This document shows positions 3,596 through 64,000 of a stretch of 64,000 bases of DNA, piece after piece. Position numbers and translations under genes: made by a program. Positions within the stretch are counted from its first letter, which is position 1, and the number at the start of each line of letters is the position of its first letter. The DNA comes from a virus: positions 46,148 through 110,147 of IMG/VR virus record IMGVR_UViG_3300005096_000058. The stretch is one strand, 5' to 3'. The notes beneath the pieces are model-generated. The model worked only from the letters and a program-made list of their open reading frames with translations, had not been told where the DNA came from and made no database searches.

Positions 3596-3644
3596 AAAAA
3601 GGCGAAGTCCAGACGAAGCAGACTGCTTCCTCCGTGACCTCGCC
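3596..3644 (-). terminator. long hairpin plus U-tract in leader of protease-capsid operon (terminator/attenuator)
   Basis: GGCGAGGUC..GAAGCAG/CUGCUUC..GACUUCGCC then UUUUU, just upstream of the protease GGAG RBS. Confidence 0.55.
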
Positions 3645-3742
3645 CCTACTCGAACCCTAAAAGCGGTTCCTAATCGGGCCTCACGCTGACGCGCTCGGTT
3701 GTGCTTCAGATTTATAGGTCCGTCTGGACTGAGTCAAGGAGC

Positions 3743-3943
3743 CTACTCGCGCACAACGTAGCGCTCGGGAGCCAATTCCACGCCCTCATCCAAGCTGATC
3801 GGGAGGGTGACCGTCTTCTTGCACCAATGGCAGGAGGCTTCCGCCTTGCCGTCTGGATCGAAACGCACGACGCCAGTGATGCGTAGGCGCGTTTCGTCGC
3901 CGCTCTTCTGCAGAAGGCGGCCTTTGCAATGCGGGCATCTCAA
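3743..3943 (-). CDS. small zinc-ribbon protein (Mu Com-like)
   Basis: CPHC...CHWC; probable TTG start overlapping the upstream stop (TTGA at 3940-3943). Confidence 0.55.
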   Translation of the reverse strand: MRCPHCKGRLLQKSGDETRLRITGVVRFDPDGKAEASCHWCKKTVTLPISLDEGVELAPERYVVRE

Positions 3944-15057: not shown

Positions 15058-18000
15058 CTATAGGTCGAGGTCGATGCTCACAATACCCGGCACCGCCGCT
15101 GGTGTCCCCTGCCCCCCCAAAGCCTGTGAGGACCAGCTGCCTTTGCCGAATGGATTTCCTCCCCCAGACGAGCCCTTCTTGGCTTCCTCATCGGAGGTGG
15201 CAGCTGCGCCGTCCTCAGCATCTGCTGCGTTCTCGTTTTGGATGCCATCGAGTTCACCACCGAATGCGGCGTCCGTGCCGTCGTCCTCCGCAAAGTCTCC
15301 GGTGCCCATCTCCTGCTGCGCCGCCATCGTCTTGTTTTGCATCCAGACAGCGTGGAGAATGACTTGCCCCTCTCCGTCTGGAAGCGGCGGGAGATCTTCC
15401 TCGGCACGCACCTCGTCGACCATCTTGTACGATGTCACCTGCTTTGTATTGAGGTCAGCGAGCTCGTCTGGGGTTTGCGCGTCCAGACCGACAAAAGCGA
15501 ATTCGAAATCTTCGTCGATGCGGTGAACGAGGAAGGAGGACAACCGGTGCTGGATAAATCGGAGAAGGGGCTGCAGCCCTTTGTCTTTGGACTGCGCCAG
15601 CTTTTGCTTGTTGCTCGACTCAAACATCGAGCCGCCGCTGCCCCCGCTGTCCCCATATTTGAAGTTGATCTCCATCGGATCCATGCCGTAGATCGCGCAC
15701 GCCACCTTGATCAGGAAATCAAACCACGCGCTGAATTCCATGTCGCGGTTGGATTGCTGCAGGTTGATGTATTGGAGCTCCTCCGCATTTGTGATCGGAG
15801 TTTTGAATGCGTTCTCGACGCCAGCGACCATCGAATACCAATGACGGCGAAAAGCGCGCAGCTGTTTCTCAGGCACGGCACCTTTGAAGTTGATGATGCC
15901 TTTGGTCGACGTGCCTTGGCTGTTGTGCACGGCCATGTGGTTGAGCACGAACAGGTGCTCGTCGTTGAAAACCTCGACATCGAACATCTCACGATCTTCG
16001 TCGGCGTGACCAACAACCTCAACCGGCACCTGTAGGTAGCGCAGCCACGCGGGCTCCTCAGCACCGAGGCGTTGCAGAAGGTGGATTGCGTAGGCGCGGC
16101 TCATCGTCACGCGTCCCCCCGACGCTTTGCGGGCCATGTCGCGCTCCGCAACAGAGAGGGACTTGTAGTTGTCGTGCTTCCAGACGTGCGTACCAAGGTT
16201 GCGGCTCAAGTGCGGGTGCAACCGGTCCCAGCGATCGCGCTGAGCAGGACTGCGTTCAATCCCCTCGTTTTTGTACGCCTGCAAATAACCCACGGACGAC
16301 GTGAAAGAGGCGATGTCCTGCACGGTGATGGTACCGTGTCGGCTCGCAGCTGTGCCTCCACCCACAAGGTTTGAAGCCACGCCCACCGACCACAAACACT
16401 TGAGGATGTCCTGCGCCAGAGCCGGATCGGAGGAATGCACGCTTGGGGTACGGTAACCTGTGGCGTGTGTGGCGGTGCAGCCATCAGCACTGAAGATGCC
16501 GCGGAGCAAAGCGGCACGGATGTGCGCTGGCTGGCGGTAGACACTTTCAGGGATGCGCTTACCCTCACGAGACGGGCGGAAACCAATGTCACGCAGCCAG
16601 CGGTGGAACGCTGTGTGGCATATTTGCAACGCTGGGTAACCAAACTCGCCATCGCTACGCTCGATGGTTTTGTTGATCACACGGTCGGTGCAATGAATAC
16701 CATGCCTCACGCAAACAGCCTTAAACCGTTCGAAGAGATCAGCATCACGAGAATAGTGCGGGAAGACTTGCAACCAGCTGGGGGTGTCTCGCCCTTCATC
16801 GGGGAAGTACCCATCACCTAGCGCGAAGCCCATGAACTCCCAAAATTCAGGGTCCTCAATGAGCGCTTTCGTGGGGCGGAAGTCGCGTCCTGTTTTTCGA
16901 TCGGTGTCGTAAACGCGGTCGACGAGGAGGGTCTCATAATCGAATTCAGGGTCGGAGCGCTCATAGCTGACCAAGGCGAAATCGCCGGCCTGCAAGTCTT
17001 CTTGGCGGACCCATTCGGGATCACCATCACGGGAGCTCGCTGGGATCACGCGGTACCTATGGTCGGGACTGGTGGTGAGCTCCAGCCCATTCCACAATGT
17101 GGTGACCGCGGTGACCTTCTTGCCTGTGGGGAAAGCGCGCGCCTCCCCCCAAGTGCCTGGGCCAGTGCTGGCCACGAAGTTTTTTCCAGACAGATCCCTC
17201 AAAGGGATCAACCCTTCTGATGTGGTCACCAGCCCGTCGCCATCCGCACAAAAGAATTTCTGATTATAGTCCCATGACCAAAGTAACGACGTCACCGTCG
17301 AGATCAACATCTCTGTTTCGGCAATCCCGTACCCTTGGTTTCGGATGTCCGTGACCGGATTGCGAACACCAAAACACATCTGATCAGCGCCATATTCGGC
17401 TGTGACCAGGCCGTCGTAGATCTGGACGTAGCGGGTCTCTTCGGGTGTGCCTTGGTAGTAAAGCTTGGTTGTGTCCGCGATGCGCAGCGTGGCGCCGTCA
17501 ACGGCGTAGAAGTCGTAAGGCTTGTCACCACGATCTTCCCGCACCTCGAAACCCAGTTGGTCATAGGTCAATGCGTCGCGCACGATCTTGCGCAAGAACG
17601 TCTCAAAATTGTCGCGAGCATTGGGTGTGCCGCGGTCGTTGACCTTGCCCGTTGTCATCACCCAGTTGGTGATCTCTTTGCTCTTCTTTTCGCTGGCCTT
17701 AGAGGGGGAAGCCTTGCGATCACGCAACTGGATGCGAAAGCCTGTCTGGAACTTGTCCTCCTGCGGCAGACTGAAATTGGCCATCTGGTCGGTGCGCGTC
17801 TTGATGATCGCCTGGATGATCGGCATGCGGAAGACCATCGCCGACAACGTCGAGTAACTGATTGAGCTTGGCCGCTCTTTGTATCCGAGCGCGTCAATGA
17901 CTGAGAACGGATCCCAGAACAAGGCTTTGGGATCGCTGACCGGATCACCAATTTCTGACGGGTGTGGACCGGCCGTTGCGGGCGTGTCCGTAGTGGGTTG

Positions 18001-18099
18001 TGCGCCGTCGTCACCCTCATCCTGCGCCTTGGACAGCACATCGAGAGCCGCCGTAGAGGCGGCTCCCGCTGCTTCCCTCACTGTGTCGAAGAGCCCCAC
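15058..18099 (-). CDS. portal protein with intein
   Basis: FLRKIVRDALTYDQ..E, VDGATLR, GYGIAETE, DMEF..W, KDKGLQPLL and DEVRAEEDLPP SPO1/Twort-type portal motifs. Confidence 0.9.
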   Translation of the reverse strand: MGLFDTVREAAGAASTAALDVLSKAQDEGDDGAQPTTDTPATAGPHPSEIGDPVSDPKALFWDPFSVIDALGYKERPSSISYSTLSAMVFRMPIIQAIIKTRTDQMANFSLPQEDKFQTGFRIQLRDRKASPSKASEKKSKEITNWVMTTGKVNDRGTPNARDNFETFLRKIVRDALTYDQLGFEVREDRGDKPYDFYAVDGATLRIADTTKLYYQGTPEETRYVQIYDGLVTAEYGADQMCFGVRNPVTDIRNQGYGIAETEMLISTVTSLLWSWDYNQKFFCADGDGLVTTSEGLIPLRDLSGKNFVASTGPGTWGEARAFPTGKKVTAVTTLWNGLELTTSPDHRYRVIPASSRDGDPEWVRQEDLQAGDFALVSYERSDPEFDYETLLVDRVYDTDRKTGRDFRPTKALIEDPEFWEFMGFALGDGYFPDEGRDTPSWLQVFPHYSRDADLFERFKAVCVRHGIHCTDRVINKTIERSDGEFGYPALQICHTAFHRWLRDIGFRPSREGKRIPESVYRQPAHIRAALLRGIFSADGCTATHATGYRTPSVHSSDPALAQDILKCLWSVGVASNLVGGGTAASRHGTITVQDIASFTSSVGYLQAYKNEGIERSPAQRDRWDRLHPHLSRNLGTHVWKHDNYKSLSVAERDMARKASGGRVTMSRAYAIHLLQRLGAEEPAWLRYLQVPVEVVGHADEDREMFDVEVFNDEHLFVLNHMAVHNSQGTSTKGIINFKGAVPEKQLRAFRRHWYSMVAGVENAFKTPITNAEELQYINLQQSNRDMEFSAWFDFLIKVACAIYGMDPMEINFKYGDSGGSGGSMFESSNKQKLAQSKDKGLQPLLRFIQHRLSSFLVHRIDEDFEFAFVGLDAQTPDELADLNTKQVTSYKMVDEVRAEEDLPPLPDGEGQVILHAVWMQNKTMAAQQEMGTGDFAEDDGTDAAFGGELDGIQNENAADAEDGAAATSDEEAKKGSSGGGNPFGKGSWSSQALGGQGTPAAVPGIVSIDLDL
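15922..17250 (-). mobile_element. intein with LAGLIDADG homing endonuclease in portal (443 aa)
   Basis: QKFF|CADGD start, block B TSPDHRY, MGFALGDG and LRGIFSADG, FDVEV...VHN|S end. Confidence 0.9.
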
Positions 18100-21793: not shown

Positions 21794-24700
21794 CTACCAC
21801 TCGAAATCCTTGTTGCCGAGTCCAGGTAGATGCCTCCACGCCAGCTCGTCTGGATGGAGGAGTTCATCAGGGACCAAAGCGGCTTCACTCGCTGAACGTG
21901 TGGCCTTGGGTCCTACGAGGTTTTCCACTGTGAGGTTGGCTTGCAGGAACTCCTTGATCGCGTCTTTGGGCGCGTCCTCCAGCTCTACGTCGCCTCCCCA
22001 ATCTTTGAGCAAGTCCCCCACGGGGTCGTTACCCAACGCCGCGCTGTCCGGTTCAGCCATTTGCTGCTCAAGAAGTTCGTCCAGACTGAGGTCATCGTCG
22101 TCACCGAAAGAAAAGCCGAAGGCGCCAGCGCGCACAGCGCAGTTGGCAATCCAGAACGCCATCACGGTGTCATCGTGCGAACCCACCCCCTGGAGCTTGC
22201 CCTCCAGCCAAGTGAAGTGACGCATCTCCTTGATCCACTCGTCACCCTTTTCGACGCTTTCGCGATCGCCGCGGGGGATGCGCACCTTGGCGTTTTCGAG
22301 GAGCACGCGCAGCTGGGGCACTCCACCTTCCAAGGTGTTCTTGTTCATGGTGTGCGTGTTGCCTGTGGGCTGGCTGTTGTTGTTCTTCTTGGTTCCAGAC
22401 GTCACGAACTTGAAGATCGGCAGATCGGTTTCGCGGATGAGCTCGTCACCAAAGATCCGCTGCATCTGGTTCGACTCCAGATAGATGAGATCAGCGTCGT
22501 ACTTTTGGCCAAGAGCGTTGATCAGCCCCTTTTGTTGGTTGTAGGCCAGGCCGTGGTGACGCTGGATGTCGATCACCCAGCGGTTGCGAAACTGGTCAAC
22601 GCCAAGCACGAACCCGACGGTGTAATCGGCGCCCGTCGAGGTGGAGATTGCGAAGTCGAACCCGATGTAGAAACTCGTGATGCCGAGCTCTTCGTAATAG
22701 GCACGAGGCTGGCCCATCTTCACGCCGATTTGCTCGACGGGAGCCCCCTGGAACAGCTTGCCGGGGAACAGGCTCATCTCATCGCTGATTGGCTCGCACA
22801 TGAACTCGCGCGTGAAGCGCACGCTCTTGATCTCGATCTCACGCTCTTCCAGCGATTCGACGACGATGCCTTGTTCCAGATAGCGAAGACGTTCAGCTTT
22901 GGTCGCGCAGAAGCGCTCGGGCCACAAGGCTTTGCCTTCCGCATCACGGGCGGCATATTTACGGTAGCAATAACGTTTGTTCGTCGACAGGTCCGCGTAG
23001 AGGTCAGCCGCATGGAATGGCGTGCCGACGACGATGACCTGGCCACCGGGGTTCACCATGTTGGTGATCGCCGTGTAGAAATAGTCGATGTGCTTGGTGC
23101 GCACGAGCTCGGAGTACGCGTCCTCGTCGTTCAGCCCGTCGTCGACAACAATCCAATCCGGGTGGGCGCCGCGAATCTTGGTGCCGTAGCCTCGTGCATA
23201 GATTTTGTGACCGTTGGCCAACGTGATTTGCGTCTTGCTCCAGTTGCGCGCTTTGTTCTTTGGGTTGAGAAATGCGAGCTTCGGGTTGGACTCAATCTCC
23301 TCCTTGATGTCCTCCAAAATGCGCACGGCCTGGTCTTGGGTCGCCGAGAAAATGTAGCCGCGGCCCCCGGGCAGGTACGCTGCTTTCCAGATGGGGTAGG
23401 CGAAATCAAAATAAAACGTGTTGTGGTTGATGACGTCGTCGGAGACGTAGTTCACCAAACCAGGGACGTGCATCGACCAAGTTTCTTGCTCCCCAATATC
23501 CTCGATAGCGATGATCTCATCCCAAAGCACATCTGCGTCAGCAAGAGCCAACAGCTCGCTGTTGTTTTCCGCAACTGCGATCGCACGCAGCTTGGCTCGC
23601 GTCGGTTCGTACTGTGGGGTGGGGCGGGGATGTCCGCGGTCCCGAAACCAAGTCTCAGAATGTTCGACCTGCTCCCACACATCCCGAGGAAAGCGATCAA
23701 TGGCTGGGCCATGTGGGGGATCTTTGGCCTCCTGCATCTGGACCAGGGCCGCCAATTGCGTTGCCTTGCCCCCTCGCAAACTAATCTGCGCGGCAAGGCG
23801 CAAGACGTCTTGCCCCCTGACTGTGAGACGCCACGACCAATGATCTTTCGCGAGGTATTTGCCCTTTTTACGGCCCAGCACAGCCACCACGCCTAAGCGC
23901 ACAAGGAGGTGTTGCACGTCTCGTAGGAGTTGCTCCGAGACAGAATAAAACTCGACTGCGCCGCCCCCAGACAAGGCACAAGTACCATCGGCTTCCAGAT
24001 ACCCCGCAAGGAATTCAGCGATCGACGTGTCCGAGGCTGTGAACAACTCTTTAGGCACGCGCTTTTCATGCGCTGTGTGCCCCATGAGGCCAAGCGCTCG
24101 CATACGCTGCACGGGGCCACCCTCGCGAGCATAGTTGGCGTGCAGTCCATAAGTGATCGGGTCCGCGGGCCTGCGGGTGAGCCCCCACCCCAACCGAGCC
24201 GCTTCCTGTTTGACTGCCCCCAACGTAACGGCATCGGCCACGGTGATCGTGACCCCGGTTCCGGTAAGGCCGCCATCGCCAATCAACATCCCTAGAAGCC
24301 AAGCGTCATCCACCGTTTTGCTGGCGCTCGTTTGTAGCCTGCGGGGGACACCGATGCGCTGGCCCACCACCAGTTGATCAGCACGGAGCCAACGATCCAG
24401 CAACCTCAACGGATGATTTTCCGTGACGCGTACGCGGCGGCCCGTCTTCGTGGTGATCTCTAGGCAGCGCTTGTGCCCGTTGCGCCGGGACGCGGGCGCA
24501 TAGGTGGGCACGAGTTTGTGCGTGTCCTCGTCGTAAGCGATCACCTCGCCGCCTGACCAAGACTCGATCGGGATGCGGCGGCCATCAGCCGCATTTATGA
24601 GCGCACCCTCAACCTGGCACTTCCCATGATTCCGGGGGGCTAGCACGCAAATGCGATCCTGCTCCGCGACGAGATCATCCCATTCCATGTGATGATCTGC

Positions 24701-24997
24701 GACGACAAAATGGCCGTTGTAGGGAGCTTGTATTGGTCCAGACAGGAACTCACTGGCGAAAAACGCGCAGCTGTTCCTCATCATCTCTAAGGTGAACGCG
24801 TCCCACGCGTCATCGCCGCCTTCCACGGCGGCGTGTGCACGTTTCTCCACGTCGTTCTCATCCCACTCGGGGACTGAAGCACTGAAGAGGTCACGAAAGC
24901 CTGCGGTGGTCACAAGGCAAAGACTGGCGGCGATCGTCTGGAAAGTCCAGACGTCAGTGCACTGTGTCGAGCATACCCGCCTTGCGCATAGACTCAC
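21794..24997 (-). CDS. terL: terminase large subunit with intein
   Basis: Walker A APRNHGK/T, IRGAHPD, Walker B IVVDD, VGTP, nuclease GFDFA..DYT and HDDTVMA; true start may be GTG at 24913. Confidence 0.93.
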   Translation of the reverse strand: MSLCARRVCSTQCTDVWTFQTIAASLCLVTTAGFRDLFSASVPEWDENDVEKRAHAAVEGGDDAWDAFTLEMMRNSCAFFASEFLSGPIQAPYNGHFVVADHHMEWDDLVAEQDRICVLAPRNHGKCQVEGALINAADGRRIPIESWSGGEVIAYDEDTHKLVPTYAPASRRNGHKRCLEITTKTGRRVRVTENHPLRLLDRWLRADQLVVGQRIGVPRRLQTSASKTVDDAWLLGMLIGDGGLTGTGVTITVADAVTLGAVKQEAARLGWGLTRRPADPITYGLHANYAREGGPVQRMRALGLMGHTAHEKRVPKELFTASDTSIAEFLAGYLEADGTCALSGGGAVEFYSVSEQLLRDVQHLLVRLGVVAVLGRKKGKYLAKDHWSWRLTVRGQDVLRLAAQISLRGGKATQLAALVQMQEAKDPPHGPAIDRFPRDVWEQVEHSETWFRDRGHPRPTPQYEPTRAKLRAIAVAENNSELLALADADVLWDEIIAIEDIGEQETWSMHVPGLVNYVSDDVINHNTFYFDFAYPIWKAAYLPGGRGYIFSATQDQAVRILEDIKEEIESNPKLAFLNPKNKARNWSKTQITLANGHKIYARGYGTKIRGAHPDWIVVDDGLNDEDAYSELVRTKHIDYFYTAITNMVNPGGQVIVVGTPFHAADLYADLSTNKRYCYRKYAARDAEGKALWPERFCATKAERLRYLEQGIVVESLEEREIEIKSVRFTREFMCEPISDEMSLFPGKLFQGAPVEQIGVKMGQPRAYYEELGITSFYIGFDFAISTSTGADYTVGFVLGVDQFRNRWVIDIQRHHGLAYNQQKGLINALGQKYDADLIYLESNQMQRIFGDELIRETDLPIFKFVTSGTKKNNNSQPTGNTHTMNKNTLEGGVPQLRVLLENAKVRIPRGDRESVEKGDEWIKEMRHFTWLEGKLQGVGSHDDTVMAFWIANCAVRAGAFGFSFGDDDDLSLDELLEQQMAEPDSAALGNDPVGDLLKDWGGDVELEDAPKDAIKEFLQANLTVENLVGPKATRSASEAALVPDELLHPDELAWRHLPGLGNKDFEW
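23420..24619 (-). mobile_element. intein with LAGLIDADG endonuclease in terminase Walker A (400 aa)
   Basis: GK|CQVEG start, TENHPL, LGMLIGDG and LAGYLEADG, INHN|T end. Confidence 0.92.
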
Positions 24998-25229
24998 GCA
25001 TGCGCTTGGCTACCGATCGCGCTTGAGCCTGGATCGTGGCTATATGCTTTGCGCTGATCTCAGACTCTTCGGCTGATTTGCGCCAGAACGCAGCGTTGGC
25101 CTCTGCTGCGAGAAGCTGAGCCTGCACATTGGGTTTCACCCCCTCGTGCTCGAACTCAACAGAAAGCCGCACGAGGTCAACGCTGAGATGACCTCCGAGT
25201 CCTTGTTGTTCTCGGCCGTGTTGAGACAT
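24954..25229 (-). CDS. hypothetical protein upstream of terminase
   Basis: ATG at 25229, 7 nt downstream of a TACGAT -10-like hexamer. Confidence 0.5.
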   Translation of the reverse strand: MSQHGREQQGLGGHLSVDLVRLSVEFEHEGVKPNVQAQLLAAEANAAFWRKSAEESEISAKHIATIQAQARSVAKRMRESMRKAGMLDTVH

Positions 25230-25245
25230 TGACCGGATCGTAACG

Positions 25246-25275
25246 AAAAAAGGCCGCAAGCGTAAACTTGCGACC
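25246..25275 (-). terminator. Rho-independent terminator
   Basis: GGUCGCAAG-UUUACG-CUUGCGGCC followed by U6. Confidence 0.7.
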
Positions 25276-25612
25276 CCTCCCCTCATGACCGGGTTTTACA
25301 CCCCGGGGGAAAGCCCCGAAAGGCTATTGAAGCGGTGTGGGGGTACAAGCCCCATCCTACTCCACCCGGGGCCTGCCCCCGGGCGCTCTGCGGCTTATCC
25401 ACGGCCCGCGGACCCAAAGGCCCAAACACCGCACCAAGCCCTCAGCCCCGTCGTCTTTGGCAGGGCTCGCCGTTGCCGGCTCACCCCTCGATGGGACTGA
25501 CCCTCACTAACCGGCCTCTATTTTGAGAGGATCGGCCAACTTTTGTTGTCCCCCGGGTCGGGGTGTTGCTATCCCCTCTAAGAGGGGGTCCCGTCAGCGA
25601 GTCGACTCGCTG
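25276..25612 (-). ncRNA. candidate structured non-coding RNA, family unknown
   Basis: Gap with no credible minus-strand ORF; many helices, GCAA and UUCG tetraloops, long-range stems; ends in a terminator. Confidence 0.5.
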
Positions 25613-25659
25613 CACAACGAGATTGTTGTCTCAAACAACCGTGGTTGCTGTCAACACAA

Positions 25660-25878
25660 TTAAGCGAGCGCGTGCTCGCCCGTGACCGGATCACCTTCCA
25701 CACTGTCTGCTGGGATCTGCGCGCGCATTGTGCGCGTCTTGCTCCTGATCCGTGCGAGCACTTTGCGTTTCTCTTCCCGTGTGGCGTCGAGCTCGTCGGT
25801 GCTGGGGCAGTCGACGCTTTCGCCGTCTTGCTCCCCCTCGTCGTCGCGGTGGAATAGCTTGGCCAAGAGTTTCACCAT
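25660..25878 (-). CDS. hypothetical protein
   Basis: 72 aa; AAGGA RBS. Confidence 0.5.
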   Translation of the reverse strand: MVKLLAKLFHRDDEGEQDGESVDCPSTDELDATREEKRKVLARIRSKTRTMRAQIPADSVEGDPVTGEHALA

Positions 25879-25894
25879 CGGAGTACGTCCTTGA

Positions 25895-26215
25895 TCATTT
25901 GTCGACTTTGGCCACCAGTTGGCCCAGTGATTTGTCGACGTTTTGGAGGGCGTGGATGATGTCTTTGTTGTCCGCTGTCTGATCGGTCACCAGCTTCGTG
26001 ATCGTAGCCGTGCGCGCTTCGAGCAAAACGGCAGCCTCTTTGCGCATGCCGTTCCCCCACTTCCAGACGATCCCCACCACGCCACCCATGGTTCCGACCG
26101 TGCTGATCAGGATCACCTCAAGCGCGGTCAGCCCTGCAATAGCAGTGAGCTTCACGGGCGGCGGTGCGTGCTGCGCAGCGACGTCAATCAGCAAGTAAAT
26201 CAAAGATAGGTCCAC
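25895..26215 (-). CDS. putative holin-like membrane protein
   Basis: One hydrophobic helix followed by a coiled-coil C-terminus. Confidence 0.4.
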   Translation of the reverse strand: MDLSLIYLLIDVAAQHAPPPVKLTAIAGLTALEVILISTVGTMGGVVGIVWKWGNGMRKEAAVLLEARTATITKLVTDQTADNKDIIHALQNVDKSLGQLVAKVDK

Positions 26216-26426
26216 GATCCGTACCCTAGCGGGTGCCGGGTCAGACTGTCAGCTAGCGCACCATCGGCGCGCGGCCACTTCGTGCAGCTCCACGGAACTC
26301 GCGTCCGTGAGGCCCTTCAGCTGATCAGCCGCATTGAACAATTTCCAGACGGTGCCCGTCCAGAACGCCCAACCACCGGGGCCAGCCAATTGCCTGTGCC
26401 CTGGAACCGTGTCCTGCTCCACAACC

Positions 26427-26669
26427 TCACATCCAGTTGCGCTCACGCGTCAGCTCCTCATTCGCCTTGCCCGTTGCCGCGTCTACCCGTTCCAAGAGCT
26501 TGTCACTTTCGATCAGGCTGCCCGTGGGCATGAGTTTCAATGCCGCCACAAATCTCTCCCGAAGCAGCTCCGTCGATTTCACCAGCTCCGCGCGCCAATC
26601 GCCTCTAATTTGGTCCTCTTCCATTTTGTCCTCCTTAGACTTCTTCCGGCTCGCCCGTCCAGACGCCAC
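26427..26669 (-). CDS. hypothetical protein
   Basis: ORF in tightly packed minus-strand run; GGAGG before internal Met. Confidence 0.45.
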   Translation of the reverse strand: MASGRASRKKSKEDKMEEDQIRGDWRAELVKSTELLRERFVAALKLMPTGSLIESDKLLERVDAATGKANEELTRERNWM

Positions 26670-27228
26670 TCAGCGCCCTCGTGACCATGCCTCCAAAAAT
26701 GTTGCCGAGCGCTACCCGGTGCTCCCACGGAATCTCCACGGGAGACGCGGGGAGCTCGGCGGGCTTAGCTGGCGTGTGGCAGGCGTCGGTACCTGGTAGG
26801 CGTCCGTCGTGCTCCTGCATGTGGGCCACAATGCCCCGGGAGCATTCGATCGCCTCGCGTTGGATCGTGACCGCCTCGACTTTGCTCATGCCGCCCTCTT
26901 TGACCAAACGACGCCAGACGCTGGCTAATTGCTCAGTGGCGGCGAGCGGTATCTGGGCAGGCACAAAATACACGCCGCCGTTGTCACCGATGAATTTGTC
27001 GACGACCTCCATCAATGCCGCGCTGAGTGCGTGCGCGCGGTCGTGCATCACGTCGAGAATAGCAACGTGCGCCTGCATGCAGCGTGCGTGTGCCGTGGTC
27101 ACGTCCTCCTGCGCCGCTACGGGTTGACCGGCCTCGATCGAGCGGGCGCAGAGCGGGCAGGGCCCGAGATCCTCAAGGGCAAGTCCAGACACCAGCTTTT
27201 CCACGTCCAGTCCTTCAATGAAATTCAT
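26635..27228 (-). CDS. hypothetical protein with CxxC/HxxC Zn site
   Basis: CPLC...HARC; ATGA overlap start. Confidence 0.55.
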   Translation of the reverse strand: MNFIEGLDVEKLVSGLALEDLGPCPLCARSIEAGQPVAAQEDVTTAHARCMQAHVAILDVMHDRAHALSAALMEVVDKFIGDNGGVYFVPAQIPLAATEQLASVWRRLVKEGGMSKVEAVTIQREAIECSRGIVAHMQEHDGRLPGTDACHTPAKPAELPASPVEIPWEHRVALGNIFGGMVTRALSGVWTGEPEEV

Positions 27229-28147: not shown

Positions 28148-28186
28148 ATTATACACGCAGGCATATAGCTGTCAAGACATATGTCT
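28148..28186 (-). promoter_or_regulatory. sigma70 promoter with palindromic operator
   Basis: TTGACA-16-TATAAT; AGACATATGTCT palindrome overlapping the -35. Confidence 0.85.
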
Positions 28187-29989: not shown

Positions 29990-30029
29990 AGCCTAACAAG
30001 CGGGCATATGGCTGTCAAGACATATGTCT
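29990..30029 (-). promoter_or_regulatory. sigma70 promoter with palindromic operator
   Basis: TTGACA-17-TAGGCT; AGACATATGTCT. Confidence 0.8.
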
Positions 30030-32694: not shown

Positions 32695-32734
32695 ATGCTA
32701 ATCAGCGGGCGTATGGCTGTCAAGACATATGTCT
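32695..32734 (-). promoter_or_regulatory. sigma70 promoter with palindromic operator
   Basis: TTGACA-17-TAGCAT; AGACATATGTCT; ATG 6 nt after the -10. Confidence 0.8.
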
Positions 32735-38490: not shown

Positions 38491-38519
38491 AGCGTAAGCA
38501 GCGGGCATATAGCTGTCAA
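38491..38519 (-). promoter_or_regulatory. sigma70 promoter (same family, no upstream palindrome)
   Basis: TTGACA-GCTATATGCCCGCTGCT-TACGCT. Confidence 0.7.
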
Positions 38520-50216: not shown

Positions 50217-50256
50217 AGCTTAACAAGCGGGCTATGTGCTGTCAAGACATATGTCT
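50217..50256 (-). promoter_or_regulatory. sigma70 promoter with palindromic operator
   Basis: TTGACA-17-TAAGCT; AGACATATGTCT. Confidence 0.8.
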
Positions 50257-63715: not shown

Positions 63716-64000
63716 TCAGCCCCGCATCTGGTCCTGTAACTGCTGCAGCTGCCCAGGTGTGTACGTGGGCTGTGGTTGCTGTTGGTAGGCGCCCCCAGGG
63801 GCCGGTTGCAGGGGAGCGACCGGCTGACCTGGGGTCTGTCCCACCGGGGCTGTCAGGGGGGATGCCCCGTATGGGCTCGGTGCCGGTGCGTTGGGCGTTG
63901 GTGCATACGCTTGTTGGGGCTGAAGTTGTTGCTGTTGGTAGCCTTGTTGGGGCTGAAGTTGTTGCTGTTGGTAGCCTTGTTGGGGCTGAAGTTGTTGCTG
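63716..64000 (-). CDS. C-terminal Gln/Pro-rich tail of a gene entering from outside the window (possibly an SSB)
   Basis: Open frame ending ...YTPGQLQQLQDQMRG*; lies just upstream of recA. Confidence 0.55.
   Translation of the reverse strand, partial: QQQLQPQQGYQQQQLQPQQGYQQQQLQPQQAYAPTPNAPAPSPYGASPLTAPVGQTPGQPVAPLQPAPGGAYQQQPQPTYTPGQLQQLQDQMRG
63911..64000. repeat. 33-bp coding tandem repeat (at least 2.7 copies)
   Basis: Unit ttgttggggctgaagttgttgctgttggtagcc; encodes GYQQQQLQPQQ. Confidence 0.9.

Follow-up and report, generated by a model that had tools for sequence, protein, structure and literature searches.

A gene-free gap next to the packaging genes of an uncultivated phage holds a non-coding, minus-strand cassette with a conserved RNA fold at its core and a strong intrinsic terminator at its end. 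The cassette is shared with one related phage and is absent from the other relatives searched. The favoured explanation, to which a probability of roughly 45 % is given, is that it specifies a folded RNA which stands alone and acts in trans (an 'RNA moron'), and that its terminator would also insulate the packaging operon.

The window, i.e. the whole 64,000-nucleotide stretch that was analysed, comprises bases 46148-110147 of a 110,147-bp IMG/VR virus record, from a phage which is known only from a metagenome. All genes around the element are on the minus strand, and the element lies between a 72-aa ORF and p91, a helical ORF of 91 amino acids which is followed by the large terminase gene (TerL, Table 1). 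The original prediction placed the element upstream of the terminase, which is correct, but the two are not directly adjacent, p91 being in between. The p91 family had no Pfam, PHROG or Atlas assignment. Residues 36-91 of p91 weakly resemble an internal part of an upstream protein of 237 amino acids (window 26776-26955; 30-31 % identity, E values of 0.001-0.05 in a small database), and p91 may be a distant paralogue of part of this protein. Beyond TerL on the minus strand there are two ORFs without known identity and then the portal gene (15058-18099, minus), which carries an intein of the LAGLIDADG type, as TerL does. The TerL of the closest relative (644 aa) lacks an intein.

Between the conserved 237-aa gene and the element is a hypervariable stretch (25880-26640). 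It contains two or three small ORFs in the window, one of them for a membrane-like protein of 106 amino acids, and about five unrelated ORFs in the equivalent region of the relative (L002:690-3063). The 8-mer ACAAGGCT occurs in 35 copies over both strands of the whole genome, most of them followed by T, and several copies encode (D/N)-K-A. The record is flagged in IMG/VR as having direct terminal repeats. Its ends (window 63940-64000 and genome 1-64) are made up of a 33-nt unit, CAGCAACAACTTCAGCCCCAACAAGGCTAC, repeated in tandem, and the 'direct terminal repeat' may therefore represent a tandem-repeat region rather than physical ends.

No close relative of this phage was found among GenBank phages. 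Protein searches for related terminases returned a large family of metagenomic contigs, many of 100-110 kb, only one of which had a TerL with more than 70 % identity; relatives at 65-69 % identity were present in ENA and Logan assemblies. A single homologue of the element was identified, in a 106.8-kb IMG/VR contig (loci L002, L007 and L008) with a TerL 83-89 % identical to that in the window. The copy in this contig is collinear with the element. Homology starts at a TTGAC(A/G) box, after an AT-rich tract, and stops just past the TTTTTTCGTT of the terminator. The genes upstream of the element are unrelated in the two phages, and downstream both have a p91 homologue and TerL, with an extra ORF of 70 amino acids in between in the relative. 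At the nucleotide level the two phages are 75 % identical in the element, 70 % in p91, 72.5 % in another neighbouring gene and 81 % in TerL. The element has therefore been kept about as well as the surrounding protein genes.

Table 1 Features of the element and its surroundings (positions in the window; L002, locus of the relative carrying the homologous element)
Feature	Position	Strand	Remarks
72-aa ORF, upstream of the element	25660-25878	-	No conserved counterpart in L002
Whole conserved cassette, from -35-like box to terminator and CGTT, 413 nt	25242-25654	-	Homologous to L002:3090-3524
-35-like box TTGACAGC, AT-rich tract before it; putative promoter	25647-25654	-	TTGACG in L002
12-mer GTTTGAGACAAC, where a -10 box or transcript start would fall	25625-25636	-	Identical in L002
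5' palindromic hairpin CAGCGAGUCGACUCGCUG	25595-25612	-	From fold and repeat listing
Hairpin CCCCUCU-UAG-AGGGG in variable 5' region	25574-25588	-	From fold; CCUCC/GGAGG at aligned place in L002
Core domain D2, long hairpin	25442-25500	-	Predicted independently in both sequences
Core domain D3, hairpin with conserved outer stem and variable apex	25392-25440	-	Helix 8; independent folds
Linker CGCAGAGCGC between D3 and D4	25383-25392	-	Identical in both phages
Core domain D4, G+C hairpin of 8-9 bp with 5-nt loop	25363-25385	-	Helix 11; one C-G to U-A change
Conserved 3' box AAACCCGGUCAUGAGG	25281-25296	-	From alignment
Intrinsic terminator, 10-bp hairpin (25252-25275) and U6 (25246-25251)	25246-25275	-	-20.2 kcal/mol
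-10-like TACGAT (25237-25242), 7 nt, p91 ATG; no Shine-Dalgarno	25227-25242	-	Read from sequence
p91, 91-aa helical ORF, first gene past the element	24954-25229	-	Homologue with 50 % identity at L002:3757-4035
Large terminase (TerL) with LAGLIDADG intein	21794-24997	-	Follows p91

The gap was predicted to be free of genes, and this was borne out. All three sense frames contain stop codons, which are at differing places in the two homologues, and a shared TGA falls midway in the best-conserved block of the element. Similarity detected with tblastx between the element and the L002 copy jumps frames, crosses stops and occurs on both strands, and neither comparison of the frames of the two homologues nor tblastx revealed a conserved ORF on either strand. 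The element is therefore not explained by a small protein gene. The shared peptides NPVMR and LRPFFV, considered as a sign of a small ORF, derive from conserved RNA boxes. An N-terminal extension of p91, starting from an ATG at 25286 which is in frame through the terminator, was also rejected, since the same ATG in L002 opens a different, unrelated frame.

An intron or split gene was considered as well, but joining at the repeats which flank the element gives no in-frame fusion. These repeats are a 10-nt direct repeat, TGACCGGATC, at 25230-25239 and 25683-25692 in the window, and a different repeat of 14 nt in L002 (3041-3054 and 3638-3651). The probability of each arising by chance was roughly estimated as 0.06-0.17. 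The protein encoded upstream in L002 is intact, because an independent homologue shares its length and C-terminus, and the repeats are therefore not evidence of target-site duplication or gene disruption.

When the 430-nt gap was folded, the minimum free energy (MFE) was -209.7 kcal/mol on the minus strand (z -4.30), with none of 100 dinucleotide shuffles as good, and -177.9 kcal/mol on the plus strand (z -3.43). The possibility that the folding is no better than that of dinucleotide shuffles, raised with the original prediction, thus does not apply to the minus strand. The structure is concentrated in a core of 148 nt (25360-25507). This core and its 140-nt counterpart in L002, each folded alone, form the same three adjacent hairpins (D2, D3 and D4), and in both phages the MFE structure equals the centroid and accounts for 16-20 % of the ensemble. 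On the sense strand the z-scores of the core were -2.9 and -3.7 in the two phages, compared with +0.06 and -1.3 on the antisense strand, where the folds were 25 kcal/mol worse.

D2 has an asymmetric internal loop, followed by a GGGGU/GCCCU stem of 5 bp. A tandem GA/GA internal loop joins this stem to one of 4 bp, on which a GNRA tetraloop sits (GCAA in the window and GUAA in L002). In this domain (helices 6-7) four pairs are changed on both sides and two show wobble changes, with none broken. The bases flanking the linker CGCAGAGCGC extend into the neighbouring stems. A possible pseudoknot would pair GGCAGG in the D4 loop with CCUGCC in D2; in L002 one of its six pairs is lost, and its site coincides in part with a stem.

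In the two independently predicted core folds, 36 pairs occupy corresponding columns of the alignment, of which 22 are identical, 6 are changed on one side and 8 on both. Since a structure derived from both sequences could favour its own support, the fold was also predicted from one sequence alone and then judged on the other, the null distribution being obtained from 20,000 permutations of the substitutions among columns with the same base. In this non-circular test 36 of 42 and 40 of 43 pairs were kept, and 14 of 20 and 17 of 20 changed pairs still paired. The mean of the null was about 27 pairs kept and none of the 20,000 permutations reached the observed value. In the two sequences available, most of the changed core pairs thus stay paired. 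An RNAalifold consensus of the whole element had 19 pairs changed on both sides, compared with 1-2 in slid controls, but this structure was derived from the same two sequences and counts for less.

These results agree with the claim that the element acts at the RNA level on the minus strand. Its conserved sequence could also reflect non-functional leftover DNA, with folding that follows from G+C-rich composition and recent common ancestry. Only two related copies are at hand and G+C-rich repeats of the CCCGGG type pair easily, as such an account would have it, but the z-scores were obtained with shuffles which preserve dinucleotides, the 75 % identity equals that of the neighbouring protein genes, and the substitutions are biased towards kept pairs. 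Of the explanations considered, leftover DNA has the smallest chance of being right.

The original prediction offered a DNA site, pac or origin, as its alternative, and a pac or cos site or a replication origin beside the terminase genes would suit the position adjoining the packaging genes, the perfect 18-bp palindrome with its many accompanying inverted repeats of the CCCGGG type, and the terminal-repeat flag in IMG/VR, which leaves the physical ends of the genome unfixed. The core, however, folds on one strand only, and the G-U cells in its shared pairs (15 of 72) would be A-C on the other strand. Compensatory changes keep the hairpins and not the sequence, the 18-bp palindrome is not conserved in L002, and the G+C content of the core is 72 % compared with 59 % for the genome. 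There are no iterons and no AT-rich tract, and the only direct repeat is the 10-mer flanking the element. Strand-specific folding, covariation and the lack of iterons make a DNA-level site very improbable.

Outside the core, structure is not conserved in the 5' 110 nt and the 3' 80 nt of the element, and the MFE structure of the whole element in the window is poorly kept in L002, with 30 changed pairs kept and 47 broken. The architecture of about 370 nt which had been drawn by eye consequently holds in part: structural conservation extends to the 148-nt core and the terminator, but not to the remainder. Several of its hairpins were recovered, including the perfect 18-bp palindrome at 25595-25612, CCCCTCT/AGAGGGG, GCCG-GCAA-CGGC, which covaries to GUCG-GUAA-CGAU in the homologue, and CCCGGGG/CCCCGGG, in which a C-G pair has become U-A. 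L002 has different hairpins at the place of the palindrome, which is therefore not conserved as sequence. The arms of the two long-range helices, CCGGGGGA/TCCCCCGG and GCGGUGU/ACACCGC, are complementary in the window, but the alignments show neither helix preserved in the homologue, and the MFE fold does not contain the second. The GCCU-UUCG-GGGC hairpin had no conserved counterpart. A different closing helix, P1, may form between CCCGGUC (25287-25293, in AAACCCGGUCAUGAGG) and GACGGG (25590-25595), with changes from G-C to A-U and from A-U to G-U relative to L002. It is tentative, because it appears in neither single-sequence MFE structure.

The conserved region begins with a -35-like box, TTGACAGC, one of six copies that the window contains, every one of them on the minus strand. 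The remaining five belong to canonical TTGACA-16/17-TAnnnT promoters. After the copy in the element there is no canonical -10 box (TAnnnT), and a consensus promoter scan found none there. The 12-mer GTTTGAGACAAC, which takes this place, is unique in the 110-kb genome in this arrangement and is not a TAnnnT hexamer. A promoter belonging to the element itself is thus plausible but putative. An 8-mer of the promoter region, UUGAGACA, is complementary to the start of p91; antisense pairing between the two was rejected, as it is not conserved in L002.

The promoter family on the minus strand (28148-28175, 29990-30018, 32695-32723, 38491-38519 and 50217-50245) consists of near-identical copies with TTGACAGC, a conserved ATATGCCCGC-like spacer and TAnnnT. 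A palindrome, AGACATATGTCT, overlaps the -35 box in three of the four copies which were read directly and is missing from the copy at 38491. Two copies have an ATG 6 nt past the -10 box, which suggests that these promoters give leaderless mRNAs. The combination of such starts with TAnnnT hexamers hints at a host of the actinobacterial type.

The lack of a canonical -10 box after the TTGACA box would also be expected if the element were a long, structured 3' UTR belonging to the upstream operon (promoter 28148-28175), without its own promoter, which would stabilise the mRNA against 3' exonucleases and close the transcription unit. The perfect consensus promoter at 28175 is directed towards the element, and the end of the 72-aa ORF has only a weak hairpin. 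The upstream genes are, however, wholly different in the two phages, yet conservation begins exactly at the -35 box, and the conservation of loop and linker sequence (GNRA, GA/GA and CGCAGAGCGC) exceeds what a protective hairpin needs. A 3' UTR is accordingly regarded as improbable.

The intrinsic terminator that had been predicted is present, and it is conserved in L002, where the upper stem is rebuilt and the loop is GCAA. Only about four strong sites of this kind, a hairpin followed by a U-run, are present on the minus strand of the 64-kb window, this one included. The terminator was recognised by a scan for hairpins followed by U-runs and in the folds, and missed in another terminator scan. 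The -10-like TACGAT near the start of p91 may, by inference only, be considered a candidate leaderless promoter of the packaging operon. Its geometry (TACGAT, 7 nt, ATG) is like that of two early promoters of the same phage (TATAAT or TAGCAT, 6 nt, ATG). Past its own terminator L002 has TATGCT, 5 nt and ATG, which is not homologous to the stretch in the window. TAnnnT would precede an ATG by chance at about 3 % of sites, a figure that is an estimate from base composition and not a computed test.

The main rival to a stand-alone RNA is a cis-acting, terminated leader of the late packaging operon, of the lambda PR'-6S RNA-tR' type. Polymerase starting from the TTGACA promoter would then stop unless a phage factor or the folded leader made it resistant to the terminator, and the conserved fold would be the platform for this switch. 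The element is on the same strand as p91 and TerL and immediately 5' of them in both phages, the U-tract is only 16 nt from the ATG of p91 with no Shine-Dalgarno sequence in between, and the terminator stands between the promoter-like box and the first late gene, as a layout of the lambda type requires. The protease-capsid operon also has a promoter, a leader and a terminator before its first gene. In that operon (window 3596-3745, minus) a leader of about 75-110 nt separates TTGACT-15-TATAAA from a hairpin with U5. This hairpin (-30.6 kcal/mol) is directly before a Shine-Dalgarno sequence and GTG, leaving no room for a promoter after it, and the arrangement is 83 % conserved in a relative (G018, L055:1640-1900), with compensatory changes in the top of the hairpin. 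The capsid-operon layout indicates that the phage probably uses antitermination of its late genes. No match to the sigma factor family Sigma70_r2 (PF04542) was found, nor to PF00940, the latter a weak negative. Without a match to a phage RNA polymerase or sigma factor, long late operons would depend on modified host polymerase.

Against such a leader, no antiterminator of the Q family was present, PF06530 and PF03589 being absent from the complete 110-kb genome, and inspection of both sequences gave no conserved antiterminator pairing with the arms of the terminator. An alternative pairing of the attenuator type was likewise not found: neither terminator arm has a complement conserved in both phages, and GACCCC lacks a counterpart in L002. 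In L002 a different ORF, of 70 amino acids, comes after the terminator, and both phages have a TAnnnT -10 box of the leaderless type past it. Homologous TerL genes in about 30 related phages have neither such a leader nor such a terminator, and the capsid leader has no similarity to this RNA. A late leader is on balance unlikely, with a real but minor share of the probability.

The distribution of the element was assessed with nhmmer and with a covariance model, R1, built from the 148-nt core only and not from the full-length element. Across 46 terminase-linked loci, the L002 contig alone gave a match with either method. In the genome of the phage itself R1 detected one copy, and in 17 other related phage records, 10 of which are at least 95 % complete, it detected none. 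Pattern scans with exact and degenerate versions of three conserved blocks returned only the L002 contig from viral contigs, no copy from metagenome contigs, and two matches from genome contigs, both rejected by the covariance model. No copy was found in GenBank phages with blastn. A strong terminator within 2.5 kb upstream of TerL was found in none of the 31 other related loci scanned. With the cassette present in one relative and absent from the others searched, it is thus an accessory feature of one small lineage, and its absence upstream of TerL in about 30 relatives gives the pattern of an accessory insert. Being absent from about 30 related phages with homologous terminases, the element is therefore not a general cofactor of this terminase family.

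Comparison of the whole window with the covariance models of Rfam 15 gave no match at the gathering score. Even at E values up to 10 there were only four chance matches, with 16-19 bits against thresholds of 39-66, and the L002 copy gave only matches to the terminator hairpin, all below threshold. The models covered tRNA, tmRNA, RNase P, 6S, SRP, group I and II introns, T-box and riboswitches, as well as Phage_pRNA, ROOL, GOLLD, HEARO and raiA. In agreement with the original prediction, which could not match the element to tRNA or tmRNA, ARAGORN found neither. Likenesses to conserved regions of RNase P (AGAGCGC, ACCCGG) and to the T-box (GGGUGAG-CCG), both noted by eye, were rejected, having no covariance-model match even at an E value of 10. 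A likeness to SRP helix 8 (GNRA with a symmetric loop) was also rejected, as the loop sizes differ and there was no model match. Judged from sequence, the element appears to match no known RNA family, its structure being supported by two sequences.

The stand-alone RNA reading would make the cassette a lineage-specific, self-contained minus-strand transcription unit. The host-type -35 box TTGACAGC and the conserved, non-canonical box downstream of it would start a non-coding transcript of about 370 nt, from a promoter which is itself inferred, and the transcript would stop at the strong intrinsic terminator, 16 nt before the first gene of the packaging operon. The product would be the terminated RNA itself, of which the 148-nt core, a compact unit of three hairpins, most likely binds protein and acts in trans. 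As a second effect, the terminator would block transcription arriving from the variable upstream genes, and the packaging operon would then begin from a weak promoter of the leaderless type which overlaps the terminator. As regards a partner protein, the genome had no match to the Pfam families RVT_1 (reverse transcriptase), TROVE (Ro60) or Sigma70_r2, and none to the single-subunit RNA polymerase family PF00940, for which the control search matched no genome either. These negatives remove several partner-based ideas. A bolder version, in which the element would be the first member of a new class of folded phage RNAs with a role of their own in infection, acquired as a mobile, RNA-only moron, is doubtful. 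Such an RNA could, for example, be a decoy or inhibitor of host defence or of host polymerase, or the RNA partner of the lineage-specific p91.

A function has been established for few of the non-coding RNAs of phages, and the candidate motifs are mostly short. With a promoter-like box at its start, a terminator at its end, a well-supported core fold and a defined place at the early/late boundary, the element is a tractable object. The finding would be an ordinary one should the RNA turn out to be a leader and nothing more. Strong terminators directly before late operons are a regulatory theme in this family of uncultivated phages of 105-110 kb, which points to an unrecognised antitermination system.

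A known arrangement of the leader type is PR'-6S-tR' of phage lambda, where the late operon is directly preceded, in its own orientation, by a promoter, a short non-coding RNA and a strong terminator; the element, with its promoter-like box, has a similar layout. The phage studied here has no Q homologue, and the RNA of the element is twice as long. It differs from lambda 6S also in its conserved, covarying fold; to our knowledge, none has been described for lambda 6S RNA. The put RNA of HK022 is a cis-acting RNA of about 70 nt with two stem-loops, which makes polymerase resistant to terminators. The element is likewise a folded RNA between a promoter-like box and a terminator, the likeness being one of analogy only. 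The prohead RNA of phi29 (Rfam Phage_pRNA), which serves in packaging, is, like the element, a structured RNA encoded by a phage, and the original prediction considered a link of the element to packaging. Prohead RNA belongs to small protein-primed podoviruses, whereas the phage here has TerL and portal of the classical kind; the element is missing from relatives whose terminases are of the same family and gave no match to the Phage_pRNA model even at E values up to 10.

The cabRNA of staphylococcal phages is a structured RNA of about 400 nt which arises at the terminase genes (PMC10686824). It lies inside the terS-terL coding sequence and is defined by its binding to the host CBASS cyclase (PMC10686824). 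The element is alike in size and in its site at the terminase, but is intergenic and has its own terminator. ROOL and GOLLD RNAs often occur in phages and prophages. Both are large, ornate, structured non-coding RNAs without known function (PMC12286853; Rfam). The element had no match to their covariance models, is much smaller and is represented by two copies only. In a large survey of IMG/VR, the motifs were 29-151 nt long and at least three copies were required, and an element with two copies would therefore have been missed (PMC10690425).

In its anatomy the element compares with the phage morons. Morons, a concept from the lambdoid phages, are cassettes of promoter, gene and terminator inserted between conserved phage genes. 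Like them, the element has a promoter-like box at one end and an intrinsic terminator at the other, occurs in two phages while many relatives lack it at this position, and lies between a variable region and a conserved module. It differs in that the promoter-like box has no canonical -10 and that the cargo is a structured RNA and not a protein gene.
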